DNA of 64,000 nt from a virus (Duplodnaviria > Heunggongvirae > Uroviricota > Caudoviricetes): the IMG/VR virus record IMGVR_UViG_3300035682_000015. The stretch is one strand, 5' to 3'. A program made the position numbers and the translations under genes. This document shows, in pieces, positions 4,429-55,976 of the stretch; the first letter of the stretch is position 1, and every line of letters starts with the position of its first letter. The notes beneath the pieces were generated by a model. It saw only the letters and a program-made list of their open reading frames with translations, searched no databases and was not told the origin of the DNA.

Positions 4429-4460
4429 AAAAAACCCCCATTAAGTTGGGGGTTTTTTAT
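4428..4460 (+). terminator. intrinsic terminator
   Basis: CCCCCA-ttaagt-TGGGGG hairpin + T-run. Confidence 0.7.
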
Positions 4461-4481
4461 TTGTAAGATATTTATATAGGT

Positions 4482-6086
4482 ATGAAATTAATTGAAAGTA
4501 TAAAACAAATCATTTCGGAGGCATCCAAGAAACAAATCTTAATGGATAAGATTAGGTTTAACGAGGAGAATGCTGACTTATTGGATACAATTTGTGGTCC
4601 ATTATCTGTTTGGATGGGAAATAAGTTTATTGATTTTTATTCAAAACGTTTAGAATCAGTACTCCCAGAATATGAAAACGAAAAAGATTATAGAAAGGCT
4701 GTGATTAGAAACCTTAATAACAATTTTGCGATTAATTCACATAGACAAGATATTGTATCAATAATGGATTGGATTAGAGTTGGTTTGAATGGTAATTTAG
4801 GTGAAAATAAAGAATTAAATTTAAATGAATTACATCATAAATCAAAAGAATGGCGCGATAGTTTAGAGATTGGTCAAGGTACTATTAACTATAAAGAAGA
4901 AAATCCAACTATATTAGATTTTACTGATGAGGACGGGAATGGATTCTATTGGGCGGATTTGAATACAAAGAACTCATCAGAGGAATGTGATAGGATGGGG
5001 CATTGTGGAAGAAGTTCTTATGGATATCTTTATTCATTAAGACAAAATATCCCTATTAATAACAAATATAAATTAAACAAATCGGTTCTAACTGCGGCAA
5101 TCGGTGAGGATGGTATTTTGTATCAATTAAAGGGTGTTAAAAACTCTAAACCAAAAGATGAATATCATCAATATATTCTTCCATTATTTTATGTGTTAGG
5201 TGGAGATGGTGAACAGGATGATTACTTGATTCAAGGATTTGGTAGTGAATACGCGTCAGACCAAGATTTTAAACTATCTGACCTACCGGAAGAAACAATC
5301 AAAGATTTATATCAAAACAGACCGGAGTTATTCTCATCAAGAACTATGCAGAGATTGTTAGGTAAGATGGGAATTGTGGATGTTCAACCACTCCCAACAA
5401 CATTTGTGTTAGAGGTTAGTCCGGATGATTTTAGTGATTATATTGATGGTGGAACTTACAGAACATATACCAATAGAACTACAGGGGTTAAAACAACAGT
5501 GAGTCTCTTTGTTGAGATAATGTCGGGTGATGCTTGGGACTTATGGAGTCAAGATAATTACGAAGATTTTGGGGGTTATTTCCAATATACAATAGACAAC
5601 CCAACAGAAGAAAAATTATGGTCAATTGTTAGAGGTTTTGCTCAGAGAGATGGTATTGAATTAGATGAGAATTTAGGTTTGGAAGATGCTATTGATGAAG
5701 TAGATAGTAATGGTGAAATTAAACTAGCGATTGGTAGTGCTATAAGTGATGCTGATGCTAACGATTATGTTGACCACTTACAAGATGAAATAAAATCGGC
5801 TTTAGAGTTTTACGGTAATGTTTATGAATTTAATGATACCGGAGCCAAAATACAAGTTGATTTAAGTAATTTTGTTAATATTGATGACGAAGAAATTGAT
5901 GAGATGTTTGAAAACAATATGAATAGAGATGGTAGTTATAATTTAGAGGGTGTTTTAAATGAATTATTATCTGAAGATATGGTTGAAAAACCTGATTTTG
6001 ACCCCGATGACCGCTGGTACCCTTCACCTGATTCTAGTGTTGTAAATGAAAATGTGAGATACAGATTAGATGATATTAGTATATGA
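4482..6086 (+). CDS. large acidic hypothetical protein
   Basis: 534 aa; preceded by terminator + GATATTTATA motif. Confidence 0.6.
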   Translation: MKLIESIKQIISEASKKQILMDKIRFNEENADLLDTICGPLSVWMGNKFIDFYSKRLESVLPEYENEKDYRKAVIRNLNNNFAINSHRQDIVSIMDWIRVGLNGNLGENKELNLNELHHKSKEWRDSLEIGQGTINYKEENPTILDFTDEDGNGFYWADLNTKNSSEECDRMGHCGRSSYGYLYSLRQNIPINNKYKLNKSVLTAAIGEDGILYQLKGVKNSKPKDEYHQYILPLFYVLGGDGEQDDYLIQGFGSEYASDQDFKLSDLPEETIKDLYQNRPELFSSRTMQRLLGKMGIVDVQPLPTTFVLEVSPDDFSDYIDGGTYRTYTNRTTGVKTTVSLFVEIMSGDAWDLWSQDNYEDFGGYFQYTIDNPTEEKLWSIVRGFAQRDGIELDENLGLEDAIDEVDSNGEIKLAIGSAISDADANDYVDHLQDEIKSALEFYGNVYEFNDTGAKIQVDLSNFVNIDDEEIDEMFENNMNRDGSYNLEGVLNELLSEDMVEKPDFDPDDRWYPSPDSSVVNENVRYRLDDISI

Positions 6087-6793
6087 ATTTAAGTAAAGAT
6101 TTAACGATAGTAATACCCTGCAAAAACGAGGGGTTAATCATAAAGAAAACTTTGGGGTTAATAAACCTGCAAAACAATATCAAAGGTGTAAATATTATTG
6201 TTGCCGATTCTTCTAATGACGATGGTTTTACACAAAAATGTATATTAAACTCGTCCAATACTAATATCAATGTAAAGATTGTTAAAGGTGGGTTCCCTGC
6301 TGAGGCCAGAAACAACGGAACCAAAAAGATAAAAACACCTTATGTTTTATTTTTGGATGCTGACATATACCTTAATGATTATGATTTGTTAAAAGATATG
6401 GTTGAGGTTATGAAAGAAAATGATTATCATTTATCGACAACTAAAATGAGAACTGACGATGGTGATTACAATTATGTATATAAATCATTTGATGTTATCC
6501 AATACTTAACCAAATTCTCCACACCATTTGCGGTCGGTGGATTTATGTTATTTAATTTAGAAATATTCAATTCATTGGGTGGGTTTAATCCGGATGACAA
6601 GTTCGCTGAGGATTATCATTTAAGTTCAAAAATAAAACCAAATAAATTTTATGTGTCAGACAAAATTGTTTATACCACATCAAGACGATTTAAGAACAAA
6701 GGTTTATTCTATATGGTTAAGATGATGATTAAATCTTGGTTTAATAGAAATAACGATGAGTTCTTTACAAAGGAACATAATTACTGGACATAA
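6083..6793 (+). CDS. family-2 glycosyltransferase
   Basis: IVIPCKNEG ... DADIYL (DxD) GT-A signature. Confidence 0.7.
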   Translation: MNLSKDLTIVIPCKNEGLIIKKTLGLINLQNNIKGVNIIVADSSNDDGFTQKCILNSSNTNINVKIVKGGFPAEARNNGTKKIKTPYVLFLDADIYLNDYDLLKDMVEVMKENDYHLSTTKMRTDDGDYNYVYKSFDVIQYLTKFSTPFAVGGFMLFNLEIFNSLGGFNPDDKFAEDYHLSSKIKPNKFYVSDKIVYTTSRRFKNKGLFYMVKMMIKSWFNRNNDEFFTKEHNYWT

Positions 6794-7512
6794 TGAAATA
6801 CAAAACAATAATTCTATCAGACATTCACTTGGGTTCCAAATCAAGTAGAGCCAACGATGTTATAGAATTTCTTGAAAACAACACCACAGAGACCTTAATT
6901 TTGAATGGGGATATCGTTGATGGTTGGGCTCTTAAAAGAGGTGGTAAATGGACTGAAAGTCACACCAAAGTATTAAGGAAGATAATGAAGATGAGTGAGA
7001 AGGGAGTGAATGTTATTTGGATTAGAGGAAATCACGATGAGTTCCTAAAAGATTTCATCCCATTCCAATTATCCAATCTAACAATCACGGAGGATTATAC
7101 CTTTACATCACTTGATGGTCGTAAGATGTATGTGTTTCACGGAGATGTGTTAGATGTGTTTATTACCAAAGCAAAATGGTTGGCTCACATCGGTTCGATA
7201 GGTTATGATATAGCGTTATGGATGAATAGAGTGTACAACAAATATCGTGAGACGAGAGGGTTACCTTATTATTCCATCTCTAAAGATATAAAGAATGGTG
7301 TTAAGAAAGCGGTTAACTTTATTAATGATTTTGAAGAGAATGCTGTGTTATTGAGTAAGAAAAAAGGATGTGATGTTGCTGTATGTGGCCACATTCATCA
7401 ACCGGAACTTAAAGAGAATTATATGAATAGTGGTGATTGGTGTGAGAATTGTACAGCTCTTGTTGAGACAAAAAAAGGTGTGTGGGAAGTTATTGAGTTT
7501 CACAAAAAATAA
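6793..7512 (+). CDS. calcineurin-like metallophosphoesterase, LpxH-like topology
   Basis: DIHLG, GDIVDGW, GNHDE, HGD, GHIH, NSGDW motifs in the order seen in UDP-2,3-diacylglucosamine hydrolase. Confidence 0.6.
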   Translation: MKYKTIILSDIHLGSKSSRANDVIEFLENNTTETLILNGDIVDGWALKRGGKWTESHTKVLRKIMKMSEKGVNVIWIRGNHDEFLKDFIPFQLSNLTITEDYTFTSLDGRKMYVFHGDVLDVFITKAKWLAHIGSIGYDIALWMNRVYNKYRETRGLPYYSISKDIKNGVKKAVNFINDFEENAVLLSKKKGCDVAVCGHIHQPELKENYMNSGDWCENCTALVETKKGVWEVIEFHKK

Positions 7513-7513
7513 A

Positions 7514-9547: not shown

Positions 9548-9578
9548 AACCCCCATTTAAACGATGGGGTTTTTTATT
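9548..9578 (+). terminator. intrinsic terminator
   Basis: CCCCAT-loop-ATGGGG + T-run. Confidence 0.65.
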
Positions 9579-9598
9579 TTTGTGATATATTTATAGAA

Positions 9599-10012: not shown

Positions 10013-10030
10013 TATGCCTATATTTGTGCT

Positions 10031-10552
10031 ATGGAAATGGACTTTACAAAATACTCGGTAGAAGAATTAAGAGAACTTCAAAACAAGATTGGTTATTATT
10101 TACAAACTCGTAATGATGATTTTGTTTATATCTGTGAGATTAGGTCGTATGGTAAAAATTGGGTGAATAAATACACCAATGAACTTGCTGTGAATGATTT
10201 GTGTGCTGATTACGATGGTTATGATGGTATCGTGGATGTATATACAACCAATCCGGATGCAGATATTAATAACTACGGTGAGGTTAATTACATCAAATCG
10301 GATGAACAATACCGTAAGTGGAAAGATAGTGAGAAATTAATATCTTCAATAAAAAGTGCTGAGGAGAGGTTGGCAAAATGGAAAGATAGAGATAACATTC
10401 CATTCCATTCAAGACCAACCTTTGCTCCGATGTGGACAGAACAAGATATTCTTGGGTGGAGAAATGAATTAGAAACCATTGGTGAGTATGAAAAACCTAC
10501 ATCAATTAAAAAAAGTGAAGAGTATGAAGAATCTGACTATGAAGGAGATTAA
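10031..10552 (+). CDS. hypothetical acidic protein
   Basis: 173 aa. Confidence 0.5.
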   Translation: MEMDFTKYSVEELRELQNKIGYYLQTRNDDFVYICEIRSYGKNWVNKYTNELAVNDLCADYDGYDGIVDVYTTNPDADINNYGEVNYIKSDEQYRKWKDSEKLISSIKSAEERLAKWKDRDNIPFHSRPTFAPMWTEQDILGWRNELETIGEYEKPTSIKKSEEYEESDYEGD

Positions 10553-12495: not shown

Positions 12496-12499
12496 AATA

Positions 12500-12528
12500 A
12501 ACCCCCATTCAACGTGGGGGTTTTTAAT
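12500..12528 (+). terminator. intrinsic terminator
   Basis: CCCCCA-loop-TGGGGG + T-run. Confidence 0.7.
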
Positions 12529-12547
12529 TTGTAAGATATTTATAATT

Positions 12548-14436: not shown

Positions 14437-14733
14437 TTACGACATATTCTTCAACACAGCTTCCAACATGGAGATAGATATCTTATCTTGTTTGGATTTC
14501 ACAGATTTTTTATTAAGATATTCCAACGACTCAATCATCTCTTGTTTCTTATCCATAGGTTTAAAAGGTGAGTTTGGAACGTTGATAGGTTGTTTAACAA
14601 CTTCCATAGGTTTATCCTTATAGATGATAGTGGTGGATTCACCAATCATTGCCATAATATCCTGAGCAGTTTTCTCCACTATAGATTTAACTAATTTCTT
14701 ATATTCCTTCTTGGTTAATTTTATTTTTTTCAT
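14437..14733 (-). CDS. hypothetical protein
   Basis: Real ATG at 14733 (MKKIKLTKKEYKK); track start 14763 is TTG. Confidence 0.5.
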   Translation of the reverse strand: MKKIKLTKKEYKKLVKSIVEKTAQDIMAMIGESTTIIYKDKPMEVVKQPINVPNSPFKPMDKKQEMIESLEYLNKKSVKSKQDKISISMLEAVLKNMS

Positions 14734-14734
14734 A

Positions 14735-14899
14735 TTATTTAAACATTGGTGTAAAGTATTCAATTAGATATTTTGCGTAATTAGTTAAAAACTCATTACC
14801 ATCAAAGATGAATGTTTCTTTAGAATTATTCACAGCGTTTTGATATTCGTTTTTTAATCTTGAGAATGTTGGTAAATCAACTGACATAGTATTTGACAT
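14735..14899 (-). CDS. hypothetical small protein
   Basis: 54 aa, 1 nt upstream of next gene; rc TATCTTTG at 14923-14930. Confidence 0.35.
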   Translation of the reverse strand: MSNTMSVDLPTFSRLKNEYQNAVNNSKETFIFDGNEFLTNYAKYLIEYFTPMFK

Positions 14900-14997
14900 A
14901 ACGGTTTATTTTAATTAGAGTACAAAGATACACTAATATTTTAACTTACCAAATTATTTGACAAAATAATTCATTATGTCTATTATTGTGAGGTAAA

Positions 14998-15573
14998 ATG
15001 ATTGATATGAAATTAAACGAACAATTAACAAAAATTAAATCAATGATGGGAATCAATGAAAACAAACAATCTTATCCATACTCTTGTGCTATGTTATACT
15101 TTAACCCGGATTCGGTTACAGAACTACATAGTAAAATAAACCCGGAGGACCTATACACAGAAGAAGATGGGTTTGGTTTAGAACCGGAATCACACTGTAC
15201 GTTACTATACGGATTACACGATAATGAGGTTGATATTGAAGATATTATTAACGTAATAAACAAATACTCTTACACAAATTGTAAGGCACATAACCTATCT
15301 TGTTTTAACAATCCAAAGTATGATGTGTTAAAATATGATATAATGGGGGATAATCTAAGTGAAACTAATGAGGAGTTAAAACAATTCCCATTCACAAGTG
15401 ATTACCCGGACTATCACGCCCATATGACCGTGGCATATCTTAAACCGGGTAAAGGTAATCATTATATTAATATGTTGGGTGATGAATACAAAGAAATGGT
15501 AATGACACCTCAACACGCTGTGTATTCAAGAACTGATGGTACCAAACACAAAATACCGGTTAGGTTTACATAA
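14998..15573 (+). CDS. 2H phosphoesterase superfamily protein (LigT/Acb1-like)
   Basis: Two H-x-T-x motifs 76 aa apart: HCTLLYGL (aa 66) and HMTVAYL (aa 142), matching HxTLxFxG / HxT[LV]A of LigT-type 2H enzymes. Confidence 0.55.
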   Translation: MIDMKLNEQLTKIKSMMGINENKQSYPYSCAMLYFNPDSVTELHSKINPEDLYTEEDGFGLEPESHCTLLYGLHDNEVDIEDIINVINKYSYTNCKAHNLSCFNNPKYDVLKYDIMGDNLSETNEELKQFPFTSDYPDYHAHMTVAYLKPGKGNHYINMLGDEYKEMVMTPQHAVYSRTDGTKHKIPVRFT

Positions 15574-15646
15574 CAATCTAACTCAGATTTACAATTCGGG
15601 TAATACCTGAGGAGTAGGAGTGACGGTCAGGAAAGACTGACAACTT

Positions 15647-15799
15647 GGTCAAGTGGCGAAAATGGTAGACGATAAGCACAGTGCGTGTGTGAGAGTTGTG
15701 ATGTAAGCTGGGGTGTACAACCCGGAGATTCCAATTATGGATTCAGTGGCGAACGCAAATAGCCATTAACTCGTACAGGTTCGAATCCTGTCTTGACCA
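15647..15799 (+). tRNA. tRNA gene with ~65-nt insertion (candidate intron); type-II (Leu-like) D-arm; anticodon unassigned
   Basis: Perfect 7-bp acceptor stem GGTCAAG/CTTGACC. T-arm ACAGG-TTCGAAT-CCTGT. D-loop GGCGAAAATGGTAGACG. Discriminator A. 153 nt total. Confidence 0.55.
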
Positions 15800-15839
15800 C
15801 AAATATATAAAAAAAGTTTGGATATATAAAAAATAGTAT

Positions 15840-15847
15840 TATCTTTG
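15840..15847 (+). promoter_or_regulatory. -7 promoter element TATCTTTG (copy 1 of duplicated 47-nt promoter unit)
   Basis: Identical unit at 16246-16292. Confidence 0.5.
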
Positions 15848-15874
15848 TGCTCAATATTAATTAAAAAAAAGACT

Positions 15875-16252
15875 ATGACAAAAACTCAGGAATATTTGAA
15901 AAACAAAAAAATACAAGAAATGGGTTTACCTAAATTGTATGTTGTTAAATCTTCCCCTGATGGGGTTGAAAAACCTATTGAGAGACAGGTTGTTGAAATC
16001 GAAGAAAATGTTGCGTTTAGAGGTAAAGAAAGATTACCGATTGACCGATACAAAGTTGAAAATGGTTATCCTTATGAAATAGATTTTCTTAGAGGTGAAA
16101 ACACTACAAAAGAAGATGGATACGGTTCAGGGATAGGTGATTTATGGGGTTGGTCGTATTTTTCAACCTTTTTAGAAGAAGAGGCTAAGATGTATTACAA
16201 CTTAGAGTTAAGTAGAGTTCAAAAAAAATATAATAAAAGTTTAACTATATAA
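15875..16252 (+). CDS. hypothetical protein
   Basis: ATG MTKTQEY; track start is TTG inside promoter. Confidence 0.5.
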   Translation: MTKTQEYLKNKKIQEMGLPKLYVVKSSPDGVEKPIERQVVEIEENVAFRGKERLPIDRYKVENGYPYEIDFLRGENTTKEDGYGSGIGDLWGWSYFSTFLEEEAKMYYNLELSRVQKKYNKSLTI

Positions 16253-16262
16253 AAAATAGTAT

Positions 16263-16270
16263 TATCTTTG
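16263..16270 (+). promoter_or_regulatory. -7 promoter element TATCTTTG (copy 2)
   Basis: Duplicate of 15823-15870. Confidence 0.5.
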
Positions 16271-16299
16271 TGCTCAATATTAATTAAAAAAAGAAAATT

Positions 16300-16815
16300 A
16301 TGATTTCAGAAGGTCAGTTTTTAGTGGGTTTGTTGATTGTGTTGACATTTGGTTTAACGTTTTTATTTAGAAAACTTGATAGTGATGGGGGTGTTCCTTG
16401 GTTATTATCGTCACTATTATCATTTTTTGCGTCGTGTCTATTGATTATTATAATCTTTTTCACAGTTAGATGGATAGATTCAAATGAAACTGAGTATTAC
16501 TCACGAAGAGCTAACATCACATCAATAAAGAATAATGATGAGGTTGGTGGCCATTTTATGTTGGGTTGTGGTAATATTGAACAAACGGAGTATTACTATT
16601 ACTATTACAAATCAGTAGATGGTTATGTGAGAGGTAAAAAACCGGTTAATAACACCTTCATTGTTGAGGATAGTTCAGTTAGACCACACGTTGAGGTTAA
16701 TATGACACATTTTGAATCAAAATCGGGGTTATTCACATATCACGATGAGGAAAATGAGAAATACAAAATAGTGGTACCAAAAGGTACTGTTGTTAATAAA
16801 TTTGAGGTATATTAA
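16300..16815 (+). CDS. membrane-anchored hypothetical protein
   Basis: N-terminal TM helices; C-terminus VVNKFEVY recurs as remnants downstream. Confidence 0.5.
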   Translation: MISEGQFLVGLLIVLTFGLTFLFRKLDSDGGVPWLLSSLLSFFASCLLIIIIFFTVRWIDSNETEYYSRRANITSIKNNDEVGGHFMLGCGNIEQTEYYYYYYKSVDGYVRGKKPVNNTFIVEDSSVRPHVEVNMTHFESKSGLFTYHDEENEKYKIVVPKGTVVNKFEVY

Positions 16816-17445: not shown

Positions 17446-17712
17446 ATGAATATATTAGATATTGAAAAATTAAAACAACTTATATCAAGAACTGATATAA
17501 GTGGTAACGATAAGGTAAAATGGCTTACAGACTTTATAGATGGTAGAGAATTTCATCAACAAGAAAGAAGTTATAGTGAGGAAGAAGTATTTAGATTAAC
17601 ATTAGAAGCTTTAGACTTAGGAATGAGAATCAGGCAAGACCAATTAAATGGTTATTCTGAAAAATCTGGTAAAGAATTACATGAAGAATGGTTTGAACAA
17701 TTTAAAAAATAA
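17446..17712 (+). CDS. stand-alone C-module protein (QQERSYSEEE...WFEQFKK)
   Basis: Same module as C-termini of 28226, 29076, 30037 and 31280 genes. Confidence 0.5.
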   Translation: MNILDIEKLKQLISRTDISGNDKVKWLTDFIDGREFHQQERSYSEEEVFRLTLEALDLGMRIRQDQLNGYSEKSGKELHEEWFEQFKK

Positions 17713-17749
17713 AAATTATGGTGGTAAATACAATTGAGGTATATTAATT

Positions 17750-17965
17750 ATGATAGAAGATAAGATTGGGGGTCTAAATGATTCCGAAATTAACTTTCTA
17801 AAAGATTTTGGTACAGACCCTGTGTTAAGAAAGTTTATGACATCTGAAGAAATTAAGGTTTCAAATAAATTAGTTAAGAAAGGATTGATGGAAAAAGGAA
17901 TGTCTGACGATAAAAAGTCAAATGTTGTTTATTATGTTGATTCATTTATATATACAAGATTATGA
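17750..17965 (+). CDS. hypothetical small protein
   Basis: 71 aa. Confidence 0.4.
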   Translation: MIEDKIGGLNDSEINFLKDFGTDPVLRKFMTSEEIKVSNKLVKKGLMEKGMSDDKKSNVVYYVDSFIYTRL

Positions 17966-18054
17966 TAGTAAATACAATTGAATTCCCAACACCAATAGGG
18001 GTAAAATGTAATATGATGCCGTTCTATGGCAATACGAAGGTAGATAAAATTAAA

Positions 18055-18085
18055 CAAAGGAGATGTAACATTCTCCTTTTTTTTA
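18055..18085 (+). terminator. intrinsic terminator
   Basis: AGGAGA-loop-TCTCCT + T8, then TATATTTATATATATG start. Confidence 0.55.
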
Positions 18086-18096
18086 TATTTATATAT

Positions 18097-18594
18097 ATGA
18101 ATTTACAAGAGAATATAATTAGAATACAGGAAATGATGGGGATTATCTCTGAGGCTAAATCTTCATATACTGTATCTCAGATAAAGAAGGGGTTAAATAA
18201 GTCAGAAAACGACAAAGATATAACAATTAATACGAGTATTGATAATGTTATAGATAATATTGACCAATTTGAGTTTGAGATTGGTTCTGTAGAATCATTT
18301 TTAGATGATGAGAACAGTTTCACATCGGATTCGTTGGTGGATAAACTTATATCTTACGTCAAAGATAAGAATTTAAATATTGATATATCTAAATTGATTG
18401 AGTACAACAATTATAGAAAGGAGTACGATAAGAATGATGATAAAGTGTTTGAACTTTTATATAACACACACCCTGATGATGACTATTCAGAGGAGATAGA
18501 TAGGTTACGTGATAGAAATGATGAGTTATATAAGTATTTTGATTTACTAAAACAGGAAACCTTAAAGATTAAACAAGAGATTATTAATTTATAA
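18097..18594 (+). CDS. MNLQENI-leader family protein
   Basis: MNLQENIIRIQEMMGIISE. Confidence 0.5.
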   Translation: MNLQENIIRIQEMMGIISEAKSSYTVSQIKKGLNKSENDKDITINTSIDNVIDNIDQFEFEIGSVESFLDDENSFTSDSLVDKLISYVKDKNLNIDISKLIEYNNYRKEYDKNDDKVFELLYNTHPDDDYSEEIDRLRDRNDELYKYFDLLKQETLKIKQEIINL

Positions 18595-19364
18595 TGAATT
18601 TACAAGAAGATATACAGAGAATAAGACAGATGATGATTTCGGAAGAAATGGTTCAATCTGATGCGTGGAAATCAATCAAGAAAACATTAGACATTCTTAA
18701 AAAGAAAAAGAAAGTTTTAATCTTAAGTTGTTCCAATAGATATAATTGGGATGAGAAAAACCTTGACATACCAAAATCAAAGATGATTGCAATGTATCTT
18801 AACGATGAGTTAAAAAACTCAGTGTTAATTGATGTTTCCGAACTTAATATTGTTCCTTGTGAGGGGAATGTGTCGAGAAAAGACGGGAACAGTTGTGGTT
18901 TATTAAAAGCGATGCTCAAAGATAAGAAAAAGAATCCATCCGGTGACCATAGATGTTGGGCGAGTTATAACAATCCAAAGGATGAGTTATGGAAGATATC
19001 TAAGGAGTTATTTGAATCTGATGCTGTTGTATTCTTTAGTTCCGTAAGATGGGGACAGACCAATATGTTTTATCAGAATTTAATTGAGAGATTGACTTGG
19101 ATTGAGAACAGACACGCAACCTTGGGTGAATCAAATCTTGTTAAAGATATTGAGACAGGATTCATTTGTGTTGGACAGAATTGGAATGGTGAGAATGTGA
19201 CTGAAACACAGAAAGAAGTTCATAGGTTCTACGGATTCAAACCAAATAATGATTTATATTGGAATTGGCAATACACCAAGAATGTGAACGATGAAACCCA
19301 AAAATCATATAAGGATTCACACAAGAAATTTATCAAAGATACTAAATTATCTGATACCAAATAA
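18594..19364 (+). CDS. MNLQE-leader protein with flavodoxin-like/NADPH-FMN reductase-like fold
   Basis: KVLILSCSNR ... AVVFFSSVRWGQTNMFYQNLIER pattern resembles flavodoxin_2 family; weak. Confidence 0.4.
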   Translation: MNLQEDIQRIRQMMISEEMVQSDAWKSIKKTLDILKKKKKVLILSCSNRYNWDEKNLDIPKSKMIAMYLNDELKNSVLIDVSELNIVPCEGNVSRKDGNSCGLLKAMLKDKKKNPSGDHRCWASYNNPKDELWKISKELFESDAVVFFSSVRWGQTNMFYQNLIERLTWIENRHATLGESNLVKDIETGFICVGQNWNGENVTETQKEVHRFYGFKPNNDLYWNWQYTKNVNDETQKSYKDSHKKFIKDTKLSDTK

Positions 19365-19365
19365 T

Positions 19366-19800
19366 ATGAACTTACAAGAAAACATAGATAGAATACAAAT
19401 AATGATGGGAATTATCACAGAAAACAAGACAATTCAAAAAATGGTTGATGAGTTAGGTTTGGTAACGGCTATCAAATATTATGGGGGTTTTGATAATTTC
19501 ATTAAACATTATAGATTTCCACCTAAGGAGGAGATTCTTAATTTAATTAAGAAAGTATTCAAGGATTCAAAGACAAATGAATTTTATGATACAAATATTA
19601 ATATTTTAAATAGAAGAGATGATGAGGTGGATATTGTCAGTGTATTTCATCCTGATTCAATGTTTTTTGAGACCTACGAAACATTGGATGGTAGATTAAT
19701 AAAATTAAAAACAGAAAAAACAGTTAGATATGAGGATTTACCGGAGAATATTCTTAATAGAGTATTTTATGATATAATAAGATTGTCTGAAAAAAAATAA
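19366..19800 (+). CDS. MNLQENI-leader family protein
   Basis: MNLQENIDRIQIMMGIITE. Confidence 0.5.
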   Translation: MNLQENIDRIQIMMGIITENKTIQKMVDELGLVTAIKYYGGFDNFIKHYRFPPKEEILNLIKKVFKDSKTNEFYDTNINILNRRDDEVDIVSVFHPDSMFFETYETLDGRLIKLKTEKTVRYEDLPENILNRVFYDIIRLSEKK

Positions 19801-19806
19801 AACAAT

Positions 19807-20157: not shown

Positions 20158-20175
20158 AACCTTATAAACGGGGGA

Positions 20176-20529: not shown

Positions 20530-20553
20530 ATTATCTTAATTTTTAATGTTCCT

Positions 20554-20877: not shown

Positions 20878-20960
20878 ATCAAATAAATATCTAACAAAGA
20901 TAAAACATTTTATTGATTATATGGGGGAAATTATATATTATTATAATAAAATTAAATACT

Positions 20961-21590: not shown

Positions 21591-21603
21591 TAGATACTAA
21601 TAA

Positions 21604-21630: not shown

Positions 21631-21866
21631 ATTATAAGATAAAATACTAAACGATAAATCTATTCGTTCATAGTCCTACGTTCCACTCCGGAATTCACTC
21701 ATAGTTTCATCCTTTACTATTTTCTGTATATATTATAATTGTTTTACTCACCGTATATACATTTTACTTTTTACTATACATAGTAAAATAACAATATGTT
21801 CATAATTATTTTTGTTTCAGTGTTCATTTTTACTAATTTACCTATATTTATAATAAAAGATAAGTT

Positions 21867-23684: not shown

Positions 23685-24380
23685 ATGGGGGAATTAAAAA
23701 TAAAGTACTTACTCCGATTATCATATTCTCAAAGAATGGGGATTTATATTAAATATAAAGCAGGTTGGAGTCTACTCTTCCACCACTCGGTACGCCCCCA
23801 TCCGGACTATCTACCGGTAATGTGGTACAAAGATATAACAAATAATCTACACCACCAAATAAAATGGGGAAAGATTATTAATTATTATTTCAATATATTT
23901 ATATGTATGATAGAGACAAAACCTAAAGATATAACCCCAATCAAAAGAAAGGGGATAGATATGACCGTTAAAGGTCTACAAAAGAAATACCCATTCATAA
24001 TAGGATATAAGGATGATACAACAACTCAATATATATCATTACACTACATTGATTTAATAATAGACCTCAACAAACTATCTGAGTATGCGGATGTCCCGGT
24101 TAACCCATATTGGGAATCATATGTACTTGCGAACCCCCAATACGAAAAAGTATATGCCTTATGGTCCTATTTAGAATTCCCCAATAATGATTTGTTTGGG
24201 GATATTAAAGACCATCCCGGATATATAATACAACAGAAGGTAGTAGAGGACCTCGAATTTATATACTCACACCTACCATCTCAACTAACACTACACTATA
24301 CTCCCAAATCAACTTTCTTCCCCGATGACCCACCAACTTATACCGTGAGATTAAAACCTAACGCATATCTAATGAGGTAA
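23685..24380 (+). CDS. hypothetical protein of island (candidate initiator; start uncertain)
   Basis: 231 aa ORF; stop is immediately followed by 3x23-bp iterons. Confidence 0.35.
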   Translation: MGELKIKYLLRLSYSQRMGIYIKYKAGWSLLFHHSVRPHPDYLPVMWYKDITNNLHHQIKWGKIINYYFNIFICMIETKPKDITPIKRKGIDMTVKGLQKKYPFIIGYKDDTTTQYISLHYIDLIIDLNKLSEYADVPVNPYWESYVLANPQYEKVYALWSYLEFPNNDLFGDIKDHPGYIIQQKVVEDLEFIYSHLPSQLTLHYTPKSTFFPDDPPTYTVRLKPNAYLMR

Positions 24381-25401: not shown

Positions 25402-25402
25402 A

Positions 25403-25449: not shown

Positions 25450-25473
25450 ATGAAAATTAATATATTTATTAGT

Positions 25474-33277: not shown

Positions 33278-33291
33278 GGATATTTATTTAT

Positions 33292-34293: not shown

Positions 34294-34319
34294 CCATATA
34301 TTTATATTAAACAATTAAA

Positions 34320-35786: not shown

Positions 35787-35798
35787 TATCTTTGTCGA

Positions 35799-37434: not shown

Positions 37435-37473
37435 ACCTCCAGTTTCTTTTTAGATTGGGGGATATTTATTTAT

Positions 37474-39944: not shown

Positions 39945-40000
39945 AGAACAAAGATAATAAAACTATTTCTTATCATCAAATAATAAATTATATTTTTTAA

Positions 40001-40565: not shown

Positions 40566-41060
40566 ATGAAATTTATTATTTGTTTATTGTTTTGTTGTCT
40601 TGGGTATTCCCAATTACCAACAAATATTGTTATTGGGGATTCTCAAACTCCATATGTTGATTTAAATTCAAAAAAAGTTGTGAAAGTTGTTGGTCTATGG
40701 AAAAAAGGTATTCGCGTCCCAGAGCTTACCAAAATGATTAAGAGACATAATGTCTCACCAATAATTCAAAATGTTTTTTTGTGTATTGGAACCAACGACC
40801 TTTATTATAGAAATGGTGTTGAGAAATTATTTAATTCCATTTGTGTTACATTCCCAAATGCGAAGATTTACGTCATCCAAGGTTCTTGGGGTTGGGGAAA
40901 TCTTAGACACACCAGATATGGTAAAGTTAAAAAATATTACAAACGATACGAGGAATTGGGTGGAACCATAATTGAACCTCCAATTGGAAAAGGTGACCCC
41001 CACCATAACTCTCCGGTGTATAAGAAAATTGGGGAAGTCATTGATAATATGTTATTGTAA
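40566..41060 (+). CDS. secreted SGNH/GDSL hydrolase
   Basis: Signal peptide; blocks IGDSQT, GTND, DPHHN. Confidence 0.65.
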   Translation: MKFIICLLFCCLGYSQLPTNIVIGDSQTPYVDLNSKKVVKVVGLWKKGIRVPELTKMIKRHNVSPIIQNVFLCIGTNDLYYRNGVEKLFNSICVTFPNAKIYVIQGSWGWGNLRHTRYGKVKKYYKRYEELGGTIIEPPIGKGDPHHNSPVYKKIGEVIDNMLL

Positions 41061-41073
41061 TATATTTATTGAT

Positions 41074-41460: not shown

Positions 41461-41812
41461 TGGAAAATATTTAACAAAACACCCTTTTTAGTGGAAAAAA
41501 ACGTCTATTTTAAAGATTTTTTTAATTTTTAATGGAAAATACCTTACATTTGTAATATGATATACCTTATTCTTTATTTTAATATTGGTCTTATACTCTC
41601 ATTACTTTTTTTTATACTGATGAGTATTTCAGAACAAGACATAACTTTTAACGACATTCTTGTTGTTATATTTTTATGGCCTTTAGTAATTTATTATATA
41701 ATCACCGAACACTTTTAAAAATTTGAGATATTTATAAAAACTAGTATATTATTTTACTAGTTTTTATATTAAATAATTCATTATTAATAGTTTAAAAATA
41801 TCAAGACCCAAA

Positions 41813-41840
41813 TTCCCTCCTTACCGGAGGGTTTTTTATT
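41813..41840 (+). terminator. intrinsic terminator
   Basis: CCCTCC-loop-GGAGGG + T-run. Confidence 0.65.
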
Positions 41841-41859
41841 TATACAGATATTTATAATT

Positions 41860-44209: not shown

Positions 44210-44319
44210 ATTATCGTTTTTTATTTAAGTATAAATAAAAAAATAAATAAAAACAATACCACCGGAAGTAAAACTATGATTTTACATAATTTGTTGATAT
44301 TTATAATAAAAGATAAGTT

Positions 44320-45219
44320 ATGAATACATTTATTTATGGGTTAGTCAGTAAAGAATCACCTAATGAAATTAGATATATTGGGAAATCGGATAATCCTTCT
44401 TATAGATTGAAAAGACATATATATTTAACAAAATACTCGGTTAAAAAAAATAAAAATTTAACACATAAAGATTATTGGATAATTAAAAACAATTATGATA
44501 TTGATTTTATTATCCTTGAAGAGTGTGATAATTTATTATGGAGTGAAAAAGAAAAAGAATATATCTTAAAACACACAAATTTGACAAACACTTCGTCGGG
44601 TGGGTTAGGTGGTTGTGGAATAACTTATAAAATGACTTATGATGAAACTAAATCTTGGATTCAAAAAAATTTAAAAATTAAATCAAAATCAGATTGGTAT
44701 CGTCAAATTAAAACACTTAAATTGCCTGATTATATTTGTAAATATCCCGACCAATCCTACGAAAAAAGAGGTTGGATTAGTTGGATTGATTTTTTGGGGT
44801 CAAATAATAAATTTGATAATGATGTTACCTATATTTCATATGATGAGGCAAAATTTAAATTACGTAATTTTAAATTTAAATGTTCCGAAGATTATCGGAA
44901 ACATCATAGAAATGGGTTAATCCCGTTTGATGTTCCGTTAAAACCTTTCAGATATTATGGTAAAAGGGGGTGGGTTAGTTGGTCAAATTATTTGAGTAAT
45001 AATAAGGTTACCAATATTGATAAAAAATTTGTTTCTTTTGATGAATTTATTAAAATAGTTAAAAAACTTGACATTAAAAGTGGTTATCAGTATAAAAAAA
45101 TAGATAAAACGATTAGAGATAAATATTGTCTTCCCTCAGTCCCATCAACACAATACAAAAATGAGGGTTGGAATGGTTGGGGGTTTAAAGTAAAAAAGTC
45201 CGGAAAACCGGACTTTTAA
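44320..45219 (+). CDS. GIY-YIG-type homing endonuclease-like protein
   Basis: IYGLVSKESPNEIRYIGKSDNPSYRLKRH GIY-YIG N-terminus; repeated KRGW[IV]SW DNA-binding-like modules. Confidence 0.6.
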   Translation: MNTFIYGLVSKESPNEIRYIGKSDNPSYRLKRHIYLTKYSVKKNKNLTHKDYWIIKNNYDIDFIILEECDNLLWSEKEKEYILKHTNLTNTSSGGLGGCGITYKMTYDETKSWIQKNLKIKSKSDWYRQIKTLKLPDYICKYPDQSYEKRGWISWIDFLGSNNKFDNDVTYISYDEAKFKLRNFKFKCSEDYRKHHRNGLIPFDVPLKPFRYYGKRGWVSWSNYLSNNKVTNIDKKFVSFDEFIKIVKKLDIKSGYQYKKIDKTIRDKYCLPSVPSTQYKNEGWNGWGFKVKKSGKPDF

Positions 45220-45220: not shown

Positions 45221-45958
45221 TTATTTATTGTAAATTTCTTTTGAATAGTAATCTTCAAAACCTTCCATCATTTGACTGATTGAGGGACTATTTTCTAAAC
45301 CAATAATGTTATCAATTAATCCAATTTCTTTTGATTCTTCAGAGTTAAACCATTTATCTCGTCTTGAAATTTCATAAATCTCATCAAAAGTTTTATCACA
45401 ATTTTGAGATAATATTTTGAATAACATATAGTTATATTTTTCGGCTTCCATATGACTTATACGAGTATCTTGGATATTCCCCGATGTCCCATAACTTACA
45501 AAATGAGTCATAACTTTAGAAAAAATTAATGAATTTCTTTTACCTTTAGCTCCCGAAGACAATAATATTGAACCCATAGATGCACACATTCCAAGATTAG
45601 TTGTTGAAACATCTGCTTTAACATAATTCATAACATCTCTTATACCAAGTCCCATCATCACTGACCCACCAGGACTATTTAAGTAAAGACTAATATCTTT
45701 TTTATCTGTGGTGTCTAAAAAAATTAATTGTGCTTGGATAATATCACCCATTCTATCATCTACAGGTCCTGATGCCCAAACAATTCTATCAAGAATTAAT
45801 CTTGAAAAAATATCCATCTGAGTTGCTCTCATTTCTCGTTCTTCCAAAATATACGGGGTTAATGAATTTTCCATATGTTTTTGGTAGTAATCTAAATTAA
45901 GTCCTGAAATACCTCTGTCGCTCATTGCGAACTTTTTAAAATCGTTTCCGTAATTCAT
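45221..45958 (-). CDS. clpP: ClpP-family serine protease
   Basis: Ser-His-Asp triad context: GMCASMG, KVMTHFVSYGTSGNIQD, RRDKWFNSEESKEIGLID. Confidence 0.8.
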   Translation of the reverse strand: MNYGNDFKKFAMSDRGISGLNLDYYQKHMENSLTPYILEEREMRATQMDIFSRLILDRIVWASGPVDDRMGDIIQAQLIFLDTTDKKDISLYLNSPGGSVMMGLGIRDVMNYVKADVSTTNLGMCASMGSILLSSGAKGKRNSLIFSKVMTHFVSYGTSGNIQDTRISHMEAEKYNYMLFKILSQNCDKTFDEIYEISRRDKWFNSEESKEIGLIDNIIGLENSPSISQMMEGFEDYYSKEIYNK

Positions 45959-53266: not shown

Positions 53267-53322
53267 TTTTTTCATAATTTTATGATATTTATATTAAAGA
53301 GTAATCCTTAAACTAAATCAAT

Positions 53323-54802: not shown

Positions 54803-54971
54803 GATGATGAGGTCACTCCATACATTATGGATGAAAGGTTTGATAACTTGGGACCAAGTTGAGGAATTATTAGTGGCAAGTATCCAATTAGAACTAACAT
54901 TCTTAAATAAGGATGAATTTACGGCAGAAACATTAGATGGAAAAACAAAATATAGACTCGGAGAACAATAA
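54780..54971 (+). CDS. hypothetical small protein
   Basis: 63 aa. Confidence 0.35.
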   Translation: MNEATEFEMMRSLHTLWMKGLITWDQVEELLVASIQLELTFLNKDEFTAETLDGKTKYRLGEQ

Positions 54972-55293
54972 TTACTTTAAGAAAAATAAAGTAAAAATTA
55001 ATAAAATTGTTAAGGAATATAAGAGTGCAACACCAAAAGAAATTTGGGTGGGTGTAAGAGATAATTTTACCTTTGGGTTCTTAGGTGCTACCTTAGTTGT
55101 TTTCATCTCTACACGTACCGATATTGCGGTATTCTTAGATTATTTAGTATATTATTTCTTTATGGGTAAGATTGTTAATAGAACAAAATATGTGACTGAT
55201 TTGGGTAAATTAATTGTGTTTCCATTACCATCTGCTTTAGGAGCGTTCACCGGATACAAATTAAGTTATATTTTATTACACTTTATTAAATAA
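54937..55293 (+). CDS. membrane protein (start uncertain)
   Basis: Hydrophobic helices; overlaps upstream ORF by 35 nt. Confidence 0.35.
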   Translation: MEKQNIDSENNNYFKKNKVKINKIVKEYKSATPKEIWVGVRDNFTFGFLGATLVVFISTRTDIAVFLDYLVYYFFMGKIVNRTKYVTDLGKLIVFPLPSALGAFTGYKLSYILLHFIK

Positions 55294-55295
55294 AA

Positions 55296-55322
55296 AAACC
55301 GACATATGTCGGTTTTGTTGTT
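55296..55322. terminator. bidirectional intrinsic terminator
   Basis: AACCGACAT-ATGTCGGTT palindrome, A7/T-run flanks. Confidence 0.7.
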
Positions 55323-55925
55323 TTAAGCGATTTCTGATTTATTGATTGGGTGTGGTTTTGGGGAATGACCGGAAACATATCCTTGAGTTACTTTACGTAA
55401 TAAATCTTTAGTACCCCATTTTGAATTTATAACTGCATCGGATAATTGAGATAAACCTACATCATTTTTTAGTCCATCGATAATATTATAATATCCGTAT
55501 TTATCTCTACCATTTTTAAGAGTTTTACAGGTTGCTTCAATACCTTCTTCCGGAGTTGAATAATTTTTAACACCTACGGAAGTATTACTAATATTTGTTG
55601 CTCCAGGCATTTTCATAGTAGTATTGAATGGGTTGTTTTTTGCTTTACCACCTTCAGCTTGTCTCCAAGCGTACATAAATAACATATTATTTTTAGTTGG
55701 TTCAGCACCTAAACATTTTAAAACTGATTTATAAAAATCGTCATCAGTTGTTGTTATGTTATTTGAAGTGTTATCGTCATCATCATTAAACTTGCCTGTT
55801 TTTAACATATTGGATATTTTATCGGTTAATCCTTTAAAAATATCATCGGCCCCCTGTTCATTAATATTATATAATAATTTAATGTGGTTTTTATCTTCTT
55901 CTGTTATTAAAATTTTCTTAGACAT
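55323..55925 (-). CDS. hypothetical protein with KILITEED leader
   Basis: MSKKILITEEDKNHIKLLYNINEQ. Confidence 0.5.
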   Translation of the reverse strand: MSKKILITEEDKNHIKLLYNINEQGADDIFKGLTDKISNMLKTGKFNDDDDNTSNNITTTDDDFYKSVLKCLGAEPTKNNMLFMYAWRQAEGGKAKNNPFNTTMKMPGATNISNTSVGVKNYSTPEEGIEATCKTLKNGRDKYGYYNIIDGLKNDVGLSQLSDAVINSKWGTKDLLRKVTQGYVSGHSPKPHPINKSEIA

Positions 55926-55976
55926 ATAAAATTTAGTTTATTATAAATACTAACAAATTTTAATATATTTATAAAT

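Follow-up and report, generated by a model that had tools for sequence, protein, structure and literature searches.

Sites of the box in the window

The window, i.e. the whole stretch of 64,000 nucleotides of viral DNA that was analysed, has a G+C content of 30% and carries a short AT-rich box with the consensus [G/T]ATATTTAT[A/T] at 19 co-oriented sites. The sites, together with the terminators and host-type elements next to them, are the following:

4429..4458, plus strand: hairpin of an intrinsic terminator, joined to the 4467 box as a composite cassette
4467..4476, plus strand: box GATATTTATA, 5 nt before ATG 4482 of a 534-aa protein; the operon also holds a GT2 glycosyltransferase and a metallophosphatase
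9551..9569, plus strand: intrinsic terminator ahead of the 9586 box
9586..9595, plus strand: box TATATTTATA, 3 nt before ATG 9599; host-type TATTTTTG lies in tandem 4 nt 5' of it
12499..12523, plus strand: intrinsic terminator ahead of the 12535 box
12535..12544, plus strand: box GATATTTATA, 3 nt before ATG 12548, the first of three tandem MKxIITE-family genes
18056..18079, plus strand: intrinsic terminator ahead of the 18084 box
18084..18093, plus strand: box TATATTTATA, 3 nt before ATG 18097 (MNLQENI family)
20882..20891, minus strand: box GATATTTATT, 4 nt before ATG 20877 (the 8-mer ends 5 nt before it)
4 nt 5' of the 20882 box, minus strand: host-type TATCTTTG, in tandem
21843..21852, plus strand: box TATATTTATA, a 13-nt A-rich stretch before ATG 21867 (endonuclease VII / HNH-like)
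23894..23903, plus strand: box TATATTTATA, 3 nt before ATG 23907
25461..25470, plus strand: box TATATTTATT, 3 nt before ATG 25474; C-rich hairpin and T-tract 5' of the box
33279..33288, plus strand: box GATATTTATT, 3 nt before ATG 33292; adjoining hairpin at 33253-33279
34297..34306, plus strand: box TATATTTATA, a 13-nt stretch before ATG 34320 (MKKIIKLTESDL protein)
37461..37470, plus strand: box GATATTTATT, 3 nt before ATG 37474 (DUF5872 protein); adjoining hairpin at about 37436-37461
41061..41070, plus strand: box TATATTTATT, 3 nt before ATG 41074
41727..41736, plus strand: orphan box GATATTTATA without an ORF; AT-rich hairpin and T-run on its 3' side
41847..41856, plus strand: box GATATTTATA, 3 nt before ATG 41860 of a 372-aa protein; terminator at about 41815-41837
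44296..44305, plus strand: box GATATTTATA, a 14-nt stretch before ATG 44320 (GIY-YIG-like endonuclease)
53284..53293, plus strand: box GATATTTATA, a 29-nt stretch before ATG 53323 (GIY-YIG / I-TevI-like homing endonuclease, 3' of thyA)
55964..55978, both strands: box TATATTTATA, 3 nt before ATG 55977
60233..60243, minus strand: box AATATTTATC, 3 nt before ATG 60230 (MKKIVRLTESDL protein); terminator at about 60259-60278
61742..61751, plus strand: box AATATTTATT, a 30-nt stretch before ATG 61782 of the endolysin (PG_binding_1 and GH19)

All 12 box coordinates given in a first-pass annotation of this DNA were recovered, including its close class, in which the box ends 3 nt before ATGs 9599, 12548, 18097, 33292, 37474, 41074, 41860 and 55977 and 5 nt before 4482. 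The distance of 25-35 nt reported there for 21867, 44320 and 53323 is approximate: the 10-mer starts 24, 24 and 39 nt before these ATGs, and the 8-mer ends 15 nt before the first two and 30 nt before the third. The sites at ATGs 23907, 25474, 34320 and 61782 (plus strand) and 20877 and 60230 (minus strand), as well as the orphan at 41727, were absent from it. The orphan may specify a short RNA or act as a decoy. The 41061 box has a one-base overlap with the last codon and stop codon of the upstream gene 40566-41060, whose last base is 41060, and ATATTTATAATAAAAGATAAGTTATG at the 21867 site is identical to that at the 44320 site. The 14-mer ATATTTATAAATAT (55965-55978) is a perfect palindrome, so that this box is also present on the minus strand, facing the divergent gene 55323-55925. 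ATGs 18097, 23907 and 25474 are internal in-frame codons of longer mechanical ORFs (17962-18594 in the case of 18097); we argue that they are the true starts because of the positions of box and terminator.

The frequency of the motif exceeds the AT-rich background, as determined with dinucleotide-preserving shuffles: (i) ATATTTAT-N4-ATG, also written ATATTTATNNNNATG, occurs 11 times against 0.46 expected, each time at a gene start, the best shuffle reaching 3; (ii) GATATTTATA occurs six times against 1.15, a count obtained in none of 100 shuffles. For the 16-mer with up to three mismatches, 13 copies stand against an expectation of 6.1. When the 60 nt 5' of 130 genes were scanned for 7-mers without bias, the top words included TATTTAT (21 found, 4.3 expected) and ATATTTA (19 found, 3.5 expected). 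At 13 genes the box ends 4-6 nt ahead of the start codon, the base at -1 being T and that at +1 A; 11 of these 13 proximal sites end in TATG, and of 27 non-redundant sites 26 have T at -1. The start codon next to proximal boxes is ATG throughout, and there would be neither a leader nor a Shine-Dalgarno (SD) sequence.

The box marks operon heads. The median 5' gap is 56 nt for the 19 box-bearing genes and 55 nt for genes with a host-type box, whereas it is 6 nt for the other 91 genes; a gap of 15 nt or less is found at only one of the 19. Ahead of the tightly coupled internal genes, at least 50 in number, the box is absent and A-rich AAATAAAA-type leaders take its place.

Terminator-box cassettes

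The box had been described as directly following a terminator in most cases, which applies to seven of those 12 sites and fails at 41074, 55977, 21867, 44320 and 53323. Canonical terminators with hairpin and T-tract precede the box at 4482, 9599, 12548, 18097 and 41860, and C-rich hairpins adjoin it at 33292 and 37474. The 55-nt terminator-box units at 4482, 9599, 12548, 41860 and 60230 (minus strand) are 73-87% identical, and the box joined to its preceding intrinsic terminator would form a composite terminator-promoter cassette repeated through this hyperplastic region.

Such an arrangement resembles the PeSL cassettes of T4-like phages (PMC2839356, PMC4122927), in which a stem-loop terminator is followed at once by a promoter and the unit is repeated between the small variable ORFs of a hyperplastic region. 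The similarity of the window copies over 55 nt would also make them candidate recombination points, as with PeSLs. In contrast to PeSLs, whose promoters are of the early sigma-70 type, the promoter half in the window is the phage-specific box. Host-type versions of the cassette occur too, e.g. at 10031, where the -33 element lies inside the hairpin loop.

Conservation and virus specificity

At orthologous loci the box persists with its spacing, although the flanks and even the neighbouring genes differ. The 4467 box is kept in eight orthologous loci with diverged flanks, and the 9586 box and its spacing are unchanged in eight orthologues whose proteins are only 40-57% identical, a pattern that suggests purifying selection on the box. 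The TerL orthologues (74-100% identity) all have a terminator and [A/G]TATTTAT, placed 4, 5, 7 or 13-15 nt from the ATG; in Flavobacterium phage immuto the distance from box to ATG ranges from 2 to about 70 nt.

The terminator-box-ATG arrangement is virus-specific. The pattern GGGTTTTT-N0-14-ATATTTAT-NNNTATG was found in at least 116 IMG/VR loci, with an ORF of at least 50 aa opening at that ATG in 112 among the matches listed. In a 596-Gb collection of bacterial genomes it gave 105 matches, 23 with such an ORF, two of which are plainly phage contigs. The box is also lineage-specific and not host-general: the unrelated F. psychrophilum phage Fpv1 has 9 copies on the gene strand, every one of them intragenic, and 15 on the other.

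Most likely, the box is common to a very abundant group of large aquatic Flavobacteria phages. The lineage would comprise Flavobacteriia-infecting myoviruses with T4-like head genes, including the window phage and the cultured Immutovirus; the box-bearing phages carry T4-like genes for portal, prohead protease and major capsid protein. A 294-kb contig (L364) has six proteins in common with the window. The window shares hallmarks of the moraphages, namely a class II aaRS-like gene and ClpP, with DnaK 4 kb past its right end, and by these hallmark genes, not by phylogeny, the phage would be a moraphage-like jumbo phage of roughly 300 kb. For moraphages, no RNA polymerase and an encoded core sigma factor have been reported (PMC12619734).

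Possible reading of the box

The Bacteroidota -7 element has the form T-12 A-11 H H T-8 T-7 T-6 G-5 and in F. johnsoniae is separated from the transcription start by 4-5 nt (PMC6847099). The box resembles the promoters of Bacteroidota sigma-A (sigma-ABfr; -33 TTTG / -7 TAnnTTTG) in its A, its TTT tract and its 4-5-nt spacing to the start, and in the window both kinds of box stand 4-5 nt before ATGs. It differs in that there is no -33 element, A-T replaces the near-invariant G at the last position, T-A occupies the two free positions, G is allowed as the first base, and its arrangement is specific to viruses. Host-type TAnnTTTG-N4-ATG occurs at five real gene starts, the register of the phage box being one base off; complete TTTG-N19-21-TAnnTTTG promoters are also present and would represent the host-sigma-A (early) class. 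At two sites (9599 and 20877) a host box and a phage box stand in tandem. Placed 3-4 nt before ORF-opening ATGs, the template NA-NN-TTT-NN separates into two discrete classes with few intermediates, KATATTTAT (38 sites) and TAnnTTTGn (about 25 sites). The box forms a class of its own beside the host-type TAnnTTTG box, from which it had been called distinct; its close kinship with the host -7 element had escaped notice.

Judged from sequence comparison, the box is probably a -33-independent, late-type phage promoter that gives leaderless or nearly leaderless mRNAs at 13 window genes and belongs to a lineage-wide class. It would serve as the sole recognition element, of the -10/-7 type, at which RNA polymerase opens the DNA and starts 4-5 nt downstream with the geometry of the Bacteroidota -7 element. 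With the box 4-6 nt before the ATG at 13 genes, their mRNAs would start on the AUG or no more than 2 nt from it. Five or six other window genes, and most structural genes of the relatives, would have the same box with an A-rich leader of 10-30 nt. That close spacing implies leaderless mRNAs had gone unremarked in the first-pass annotation. In known leaderless mRNAs (lambda cI from PRM; abundant in Actinobacteria, Deinococcus and archaea) a -10-type element likewise lies 4-6 nt before the ATG. Elsewhere in Flavobacterium such mRNAs are a minority, 87% of transcripts having leaders longer than 10 nt (PMC6847099), whereas here, if the reading is true, they would be systematic in phage accessory-gene operons.

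The genes served, namely terminase, prohead protease, tail sheath, baseplate, endolysin and homing endonucleases, point to a late, or middle and late, class. In L364 the box lies 5' of TerL, the head maturation protease and two more genes of the head module; immuto has 30 boxes on the gene strand and 4 on the other, with boxes 5' of TerL, tail sheath, baseplate hub and tail fibre genes. The window genes that it precedes include the endolysin and three homing endonucleases, but most box-driven genes there are small accessory ORFans and not classical late genes, which counts against a late class.

The host core RNA polymerase would be redirected to the box by a phage-encoded, sigma-like specificity factor. 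Neither the gp55 HMM nor the sigma-70 HMM matched anything in the window, in the complete genome of immuto or in some 2.5 Mb of related loci, and Pfam and PHROGs revealed no sigma among the window proteins or the immuto hypothetical proteins, so the sigma-like gene that the earlier annotation proposed to look for did not turn up there. Its suggestion of a phage-specific middle or late promoter agrees with all the comparative and positional evidence; since no homologue of sigma-70, gp55 or RNA polymerase was detected in these sequences, a phage-encoded or phage-modified specificity is something that we infer.

It is unlikely, yet deserves consideration, that the host sigma-A holoenzyme reads the box directly as a -33-independent, fully specified -7 variant, without any phage sigma, timing being set by a phage block of -33 recognition (as by Thermus P23-45 gp39/gp76 or T4 AsiA) or by promoter competition. 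The agreement with the -7 consensus in the A, the TTT and the spacing, the tandem boxes and the lack of a detectable sigma or gp55 in the complete immuto genome argue for such direct reading. Moreover, the roughly 20 tandem early promoters of immuto (TTG-N20-TATATTTAGG) carry TATATTTA(G) at -7 with a -33 TTG; host sigma-A may thus tolerate A at the last box position and read the box without a phage factor. On the other hand, every copy has A in place of the near-invariant G-5 (PMC6847099), 9-10 positions are fixed in the box compared with six in the host box, and the classes are discrete. A host-read element would also be expected in both bacterial genomes and Fpv1, while the arrangement is essentially absent from the 596 Gb of the former and the pattern is absent from the latter.

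Action on the RNA, either as an AU-rich initiation region for SD-less mRNAs or as an endoribonuclease site trimming read-through transcripts, is improbable. Bacteroidota do not use SD sequences and have AU-rich unstructured leaders instead (PMC6847099), which suits an AU-rich box close to the AUG, and immuto has a weak RegB-like Pfam match (E = 0.006), which also speaks for it. The initiation region, previously offered as an alternative, is not supported: the box is absent at the coupled internal genes with their A-rich leaders; the variable distance to the ATG, 4-15 nt in the TerL orthologues, indicates that the box is not a translation signal, and the wider range in immuto agrees. Since the box usually lies 3' of a strong terminator, few read-through transcripts would include it. 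The T-1/A+1 preference and the register nearly shared with the host -7 element are DNA-level promoter features, and the orphan copy has no ORF.

A promoter for a phage-encoded RNA polymerase, either of the phiKZ/AR9 virion type with an AT-rich element of about 10 nt near -10 or single-subunit, is very improbable. Early promoters of jumbo phages are conserved, bioinformatically findable AT-rich 10-mers near -10, and phiKZ late promoters have TATG at the start site (PMC7598289), to which the TATG ends of the proximal sites may be likened. Against this, no DFDGD motif was found in the roughly 2.5 Mb of related loci, among which the immuto genome (160 kb) is covered over its first 150 kb, and the immuto annotation lists no catalytic subunit, its only RNA polymerase-labelled gene being a 100-aa "subunit N". 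Moraphages are likewise reported without RNA polymerase homologues (PMC12619734), the box precedes late structural genes and not early operons, and full host-type promoters are present in the window. That the box has no function, being AT-rich background or 5' sequence copied with duplicated paralogues such as the MKxIITE family, is effectively refuted and retains a negligible probability: despite the low G+C content, the identical N-termini of several downstream paralogues and the similarity of some cassettes, the shuffles never match the observed counts, the box stands only at the head of each paralogue cluster but also at many unrelated genes, and it is kept across phages with strongly diverged proteins and across hundreds of viral contigs.

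As a phage-specific promoter, the box is comparable to the T4 late promoters (TATAAATA, about -13 to -6; gp55, gp33 and the gp45 clamp). Both are single conserved AT-rich elements of 8-10 bp in the -10 region, without a -35/-33 partner; they share their position with respect to the inferred start, and both serve head, tail, lysis and homing endonuclease genes; the box relates to the host -10/-7 element as TATAAATA does to TATAAT. The differences concern the sequence, the box being TATATTTAT with two central bases changed and close to the reverse complement of the T4 element, the gp55 homologue, undetectable in the loci searched, and the immuto DNA polymerase, which belongs to family A. T4 late mRNAs are not known to be leaderless, whereas many box transcripts would be. 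Middle and late promoters independent of -35 are also used by host sigma after phage remodelling, as in the extended -10 class of Thermus phage P23-45 and in T4 middle transcription with AsiA/MotA. The box has neither a TG extension nor a MotA-box equivalent; the likeness would lie in a class switch through promoters without an upstream element, with the host core enzyme kept.

Box copies, operon heads and terminator cassettes

The recurrent AT-rich box found upstream of ATG codons in the window, with the consensus [G/T]ATATTTAT[A/T], is genuine: its occurrence is strongly non-random, and it is conserved. All twelve sites reported by the first-pass annotation are present, with small corrections for the three distant ones only. 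The doubt raised there, that the motif might not exceed an AT-rich background, is removed by its frequency: ATATTTAT-N4-ATG is found 11 times where 0.46 would be expected (3 in the best shuffle) and GATATTTATA 6 times against 1.15 expected. An unbiased 7-mer scan returned as enriched upstream words the box, the host ATCTTTG box, the AACCCCC terminator arm and A-rich leaders; sigma-70-type -35/-10 promoters were not enriched (110 against 100.5 expected). The co-oriented copies number 19: in 13 the box stops 4-6 nt short of an ATG, in 5 the distance is 14-31 nt, and 1 is an orphan. In the position profile of 27 non-redundant sites, conservation upstream of the box is limited to the T-tract and terminator arms, so that the box class shows a single -10-region element with no conserved -35/-33 partner.

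Operon heads are marked by the box. The median upstream gap is 56 nt for box genes, 55 nt for genes with host-type promoters and 6 nt for the other 91 genes. In the paralogous small-gene clusters (12548/12742/13073 and 33292-34293) the box stands at the first gene only, and internal operon genes carry AAATAAAA-type leaders in its place, which argues against a general translation-initiation element.

The box is preceded by canonical terminators at 6 copies and by abutting C-rich hairpins at 2 more. Five terminator and box units show 73-87% identity over 55 nt (background mean 57%, 95th percentile 67%), and these units appear to be composite terminator-promoter cassettes placed between small variable ORFs. 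They resemble the PeSL elements of T4-like phages, in which a stem-loop terminator is followed by a promoter and the unit is repeated in a hyperplastic region (PMC2839356, PMC4122927). However, the promoter half of PeSL is an early host-sigma promoter, whereas the box is of another class and is tied to late genes. The 13-mer CTCCCTCCGGTCG occurs twice in the window (25409-25421 and 33232-33244; 0.13 expected), each copy lying just upstream of a C-rich hairpin and T-tract followed by a ATATTTAT box.

Three further arrangements are found in the window:

41727-41775: orphan box ATATTTAT with no ORF; 4 nt on, an AT-rich hairpin (ACTAGTA...TACTAGT) and a T-run
55965-55978: perfect palindrome ATATTTATAAATAT between the divergent genes 55323-55925(-) and 55977-56366(+)
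21844-21869 and 44297-44322: identical 26-nt box and leader ATATTTATAATAAAAGATAAGTTATG, upstream of endonuclease VII/HNH-like and GIY-YIG-like genes

The orphan may give a transcript of about 35-40 nt, or may be a decoy or the remnant of a cassette. The palindromic copy is legible as a box on either strand, which suggests a bidirectional promoter, and the 26-nt repeat suggests a mobile promoter-leader module travelling with homing endonucleases. Host box and phage box stand in tandem at 2 sites, before 9599 and 20877(-), suggesting expression in both phases. The box also lets operons and true start codons be annotated: the longest mechanical ORFs at 17962-18594, 23685-24380 and 25450-26067 run across terminators, and the box positions indicate that their true starts are 18097, 23907 and 25474, which corrects three mechanical starts of the window.

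Phage lineage, conservation and late genes

The window has a G+C content of 30%. Of its roughly 130 genes, most of which are small, 111 lie on the plus strand. Those with recognisable function are accessory: thyA, ClpP, endolysin, endonuclease VII, GIY-YIG homing endonucleases, a GT2 glycosyltransferase, metallophosphatases, Acb1-like and Tad6-like anti-defence genes and a truncated class II aminoacyl-tRNA synthetase (aaRS)-like gene. Neither tRNAs nor Rfam matches were found in the window, and GenBank yielded no phage with near-identical DNA; identical proteins are seen again in several freshwater JGI metagenomes. Complete Bacteroidota host-type promoters (TTTG-N19-21-TAnnTTTG) are present. 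The features bearing on the identity of the phage and on its anti-defence are as follows:

14998-15573: Acb1-like (anti-CBASS), a weak match
45221-45958, minus strand: ClpP
60667-61497: class II aaRS-like gene, 276 aa, with an Asp/Lys/Asn-tRNA-synthetase catalytic core and without the anticodon-binding domain, EpmA-like
63361-64000, minus strand: Tad6-like gene (anti-Thoeris)
14673-16541 of the related locus L362: DnaK, 4 kb past the right end of the window

The recently described moraphages are freshwater phages of 200-307 kb whose hosts are predicted to be Flavobacteriia; they have a T4-like structural core, a core sigma factor, a class II Lys-tRNA-ligase-like gene, and Clp and DnaK genes, and no RNA polymerase (PMC12619734). 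The aaRS-like gene, ClpP and the nearby DnaK are hallmarks common to the window and the published moraphages, and T4-like portal and protease genes were found in L364, a locus of a 294-kb relative. The combined features of the window match the moraphages, and on these features it would be a member of that group.

Among relatives, the box is kept where its surroundings are not. Orthologues of the genes at 4482, 9599 and 12548 retain box and spacing amid changes in flanks, terminators and even adjacent genes. The 534-aa protein of 4482 has orthologues 72-81% identical on IMG/VR contigs of 207-322 kb, and between relatives the upstream neighbours of its gene vary while the box stays; the 9599 family is only 40-57% identical and its box is invariant. 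The box is under selection.

The relation to the start codon was followed in the terminase gene. The TerL of the 294-kb relative, used as query, matched at least 600 IMG/VR stretches, the best 80 at 74% identity or more. The non-redundant orthologues carry a terminator and then [A/G]TATTTAT[A/T], 4, 5, 7 or 13-15 nt from the ATG, the sole exception being the related locus L391, where the TerL ATG comes directly after the upstream coding region. Sequence and post-terminator place are thus kept and the distance to the start codon is not, as would be expected of a transcription signal. The other option of the first-pass annotation, an AT-rich translation-initiation region, is not supported: the distance is variable and the internal genes have no box.

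The pattern of terminator tail, box and NNNTATG was found at no fewer than 116 IMG/VR loci; among the 116 matches listed, G+C is 27-40% in all, and the ATG opens an ORF of at least 50 aa in 112. Bacterial and archaeal genomes totalling 596 Gb contain the pattern at 105 places, 23 of them with an ORF of at least 50 aa, and 2 of these 23 are obvious phage contigs in MAGs. Scanning with the exact string of terminator and 16-mer gave zero matches, and a broad IMG/VR scan with ATATTTATNNNTATGAA was too unspecific to inform. In Fpv1, an unrelated phage of F. psychrophilum, the box shows no strand bias (9 versus 15 copies) and 9/9 gene-strand copies are intragenic, which speaks against a host-general signal. 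A motif general to Flavobacterium and read by the host is weakened by the absence of such a signal from Fpv1 and from bacterial genomes; the box is virus-specific and lineage-specific. Literature searches on the motif string and on late promoters of Flavobacterium or Bacteroidota phages found no description of it.

In the 294-kb relative (IMGVR_UViG_3300027804_000038), which has six proteins in common with the window, TerL follows the box with no leader in between, and A-rich leaders of 14-16 nt separate the box from the gene for the head maturation protease and from two other genes of the head module. At syntenic positions this arrangement recurs in two more large relatives, of 242-259 kb. 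The cultured Flavobacterium phage immuto (160 kb), which carries T4-like gp20, gp21 and gp23 genes, has 30 copies of ATATTTAT on the gene strand versus 4 on the opposite one, and its intergenic boxes precede TerL, tail sheath, tail completion, baseplate hub, tail fibre and spike genes. Those copies of the window that have a leader lie before the endolysin and three homing endonucleases, kinds that are commonly late genes in T4. The box thus lies upstream of morphogenesis genes in the 294-kb relative and in immuto, and upstream of a lysis gene, the endolysin, in the window.

The early region of immuto bears about 20 tandem TTG-N20-TATATTTAGG promoters. At 67.6-76.3 kb of its record (17600-26300 of the extracted locus) there are about 20 tandem small genes, each after a near-identical AGTTG-N20-TATATTTAGGTATCAATAATTAAAAC; this array is early-type, with a -7 box ending in A-G, not G.

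Geometry of the box and predicted leaderless starts

In F. johnsoniae the -7 element reads T-12 A-11 H H T-8 T-7 T-6 G-5, with the transcription start 4-5 nt away (PMC6847099). TAnnTTTG-N4-ATG, with this host-type box exactly 4 nt before the ATG, occurs at five real gene starts in the window and is kept as such in relatives:

10019-10033
35787-35801
39942-39956, minus strand
41545-41559
61503-61517

At ATG 10031 the -33 TTTG falls inside the loop of the preceding terminator hairpin, an arrangement kept in 8 relatives. These five starts would make host-promoted leaderless genes already a feature of this phage, implying leaderless mRNAs from host sigma-A promoters.

Set on the host template, the box reads K-A-T-A-T-T-T-A-T and lies 1 nt farther from the ATG than the host box. 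When the window and twelve related loci were scanned with a neutral template, NA-NN-TTT-NN placed 3-4 nt ahead of an ORF-opening ATG, two discrete classes emerged, KATATTTAT with 38 sites and TAnnTTTGn with about 25, intermediates being few. Unlike the -7 element TAnnTTTG of Bacteroidota sigma-A promoters, which ends in G, every box copy has A then T at that position; and the -33 TTTG at 19-21 nt upstream, found at the host-type promoters of the window, is absent from the box class. From the end of the box to the A of the start codon the distance is 4 nt for the 8-mer, or 5 nt in the alignment with the -7 8-mer, and the base preceding that codon is T at 26/27 non-redundant sites, which gives a pyrimidine(-1)/purine(+1) pair of the kind typical of transcription start sites. 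In the simplest reading, the predicted start of transcription is the A of the start codon itself or a base at most 2 nt away. Judged from promoter geometry only, the mRNAs would be leaderless.

Candidate readers of the box and the MK..ITE proteins

The best explanation of the box is a late-type promoter that is specific to this phage lineage, needs no -33 element and yields leaderless or near-leaderless mRNAs in this region. The phage-specific promoter of the first-pass annotation is favoured by the operon heads, the conservation, the virus specificity and the late genes; the dedicated polymerase specificity is the part that found no counterpart, as no sigma factor, gp55 or RNA polymerase was detected in the sequences searched. 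The proposed search for sigma-like and Alt/Mod-like genes, run with Pfam and PHROGs on all 130 window ORFs, returned no sigma factor, RNA polymerase or ADP-ribosyltransferase. A gp55 HMM built from the T4, PhiW-14, cyanophage and Moby proteins gave nothing at E < 0.09, and a sigma-70 (RpoS/FliA) HMM gave no match, in the window (a partial sample of its phage), the complete immuto genome and about 2.5 Mb of related loci; weak FliA matches proved to be tape-measure-like proteins. No sigma domains were found among the immuto hypothetical proteins.

The box is analogous to the T4 late promoters in being a single -10-region element without -35/-33 upstream of late genes, yet it differs from their consensus TATAAATA and no gp55 was detected in the sequences searched; in immuto the strand bias of TATAAATA is opposite to that of the box (14 on plus versus 28 on minus).

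That host sigma-A reads the box directly, perhaps after remodelling by the phage, is a live rival because the early promoters of immuto tolerate TATATTTA at -7. A phage sigma acting on the host core enzyme would fit the core sigma factor reported for moraphages (PMC12619734), although immuto seems to be without one. A phage-encoded RNA polymerase is an unlikely reader, since the DFDGD catalytic motif is absent from about 2.5 Mb of related loci, the immuto annotation lists no RNA polymerase catalytic subunit and moraphages are reported to have no such enzyme (PMC12619734). The phiKZ-type late TATG or virion-RNAP reading is rejected, as phiKZ and AR9 encode multisubunit RNA polymerases and no such gene was found here.

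To our knowledge, gene timing in Bacteroidota phages is almost unstudied except in the crAss-like phages. As a late-type promoter, the box would allow the late (or middle plus late) regulon to be traced by sequence in a lineage that, given at least 600 IMG/VR stretches matching one TerL, is highly abundant in aquatic viromes. From the box, leaderless translation is predicted to be widespread in a host without Shine-Dalgarno pairing, and a concrete search for an RNA-polymerase specificity factor is defined. Because the cultured immuto has the same box, these predictions are directly testable.

About 17 small and otherwise dissimilar proteins share the N-terminus MK(I/L/V)(I/L)ITE(S/N/K)Q, with variants MKKI(I/V)(K/R)LTESDL:

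MK..ITE genes: 12548, 13073, 20176(-), 20554(-), 33611, 33973, 37474, 37968, 41074, 59684(-)
MKKI..LTESDL variants: 34320, 59994(-), 55323(-)

The MK..ITE signature also occurs in internal operon genes and at 18 of the 116 IMG/VR loci listed, and synonymous codon differences show that the protein is what selection acts on. I-T-E matches the motif (L/I)-x-E at which the T4 prohead protease cleaves and is similar to a short capsid-targeting propeptide, so that these may be packaged internal proteins. A bolder and rather improbable scheme would have late transcription driven by a factor without detectable sigma-70/gp55 similarity, or by a novel retargeting of host sigma-A to a -33-less TATATTTAT, with dozens of accessory genes expressed leaderless and the 7-residue MK(I/L)IITE of a subset acting as a possible prohead-protease-cleaved capsid-targeting tag. 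If true, it would link this class of promoters with a group of proteins that are packaged and injected, and bring systematic leaderless expression to a phylum already without Shine-Dalgarno pairing.

Positions 24380-24900 of the window form a non-coding, unusually C/G-rich stretch. It holds ACACTCCCGTTGGTTGGTCTCTG three times in tandem, then long C-rich runs and several hairpins, and may be an origin of replication, a site for packaging or a binding array.
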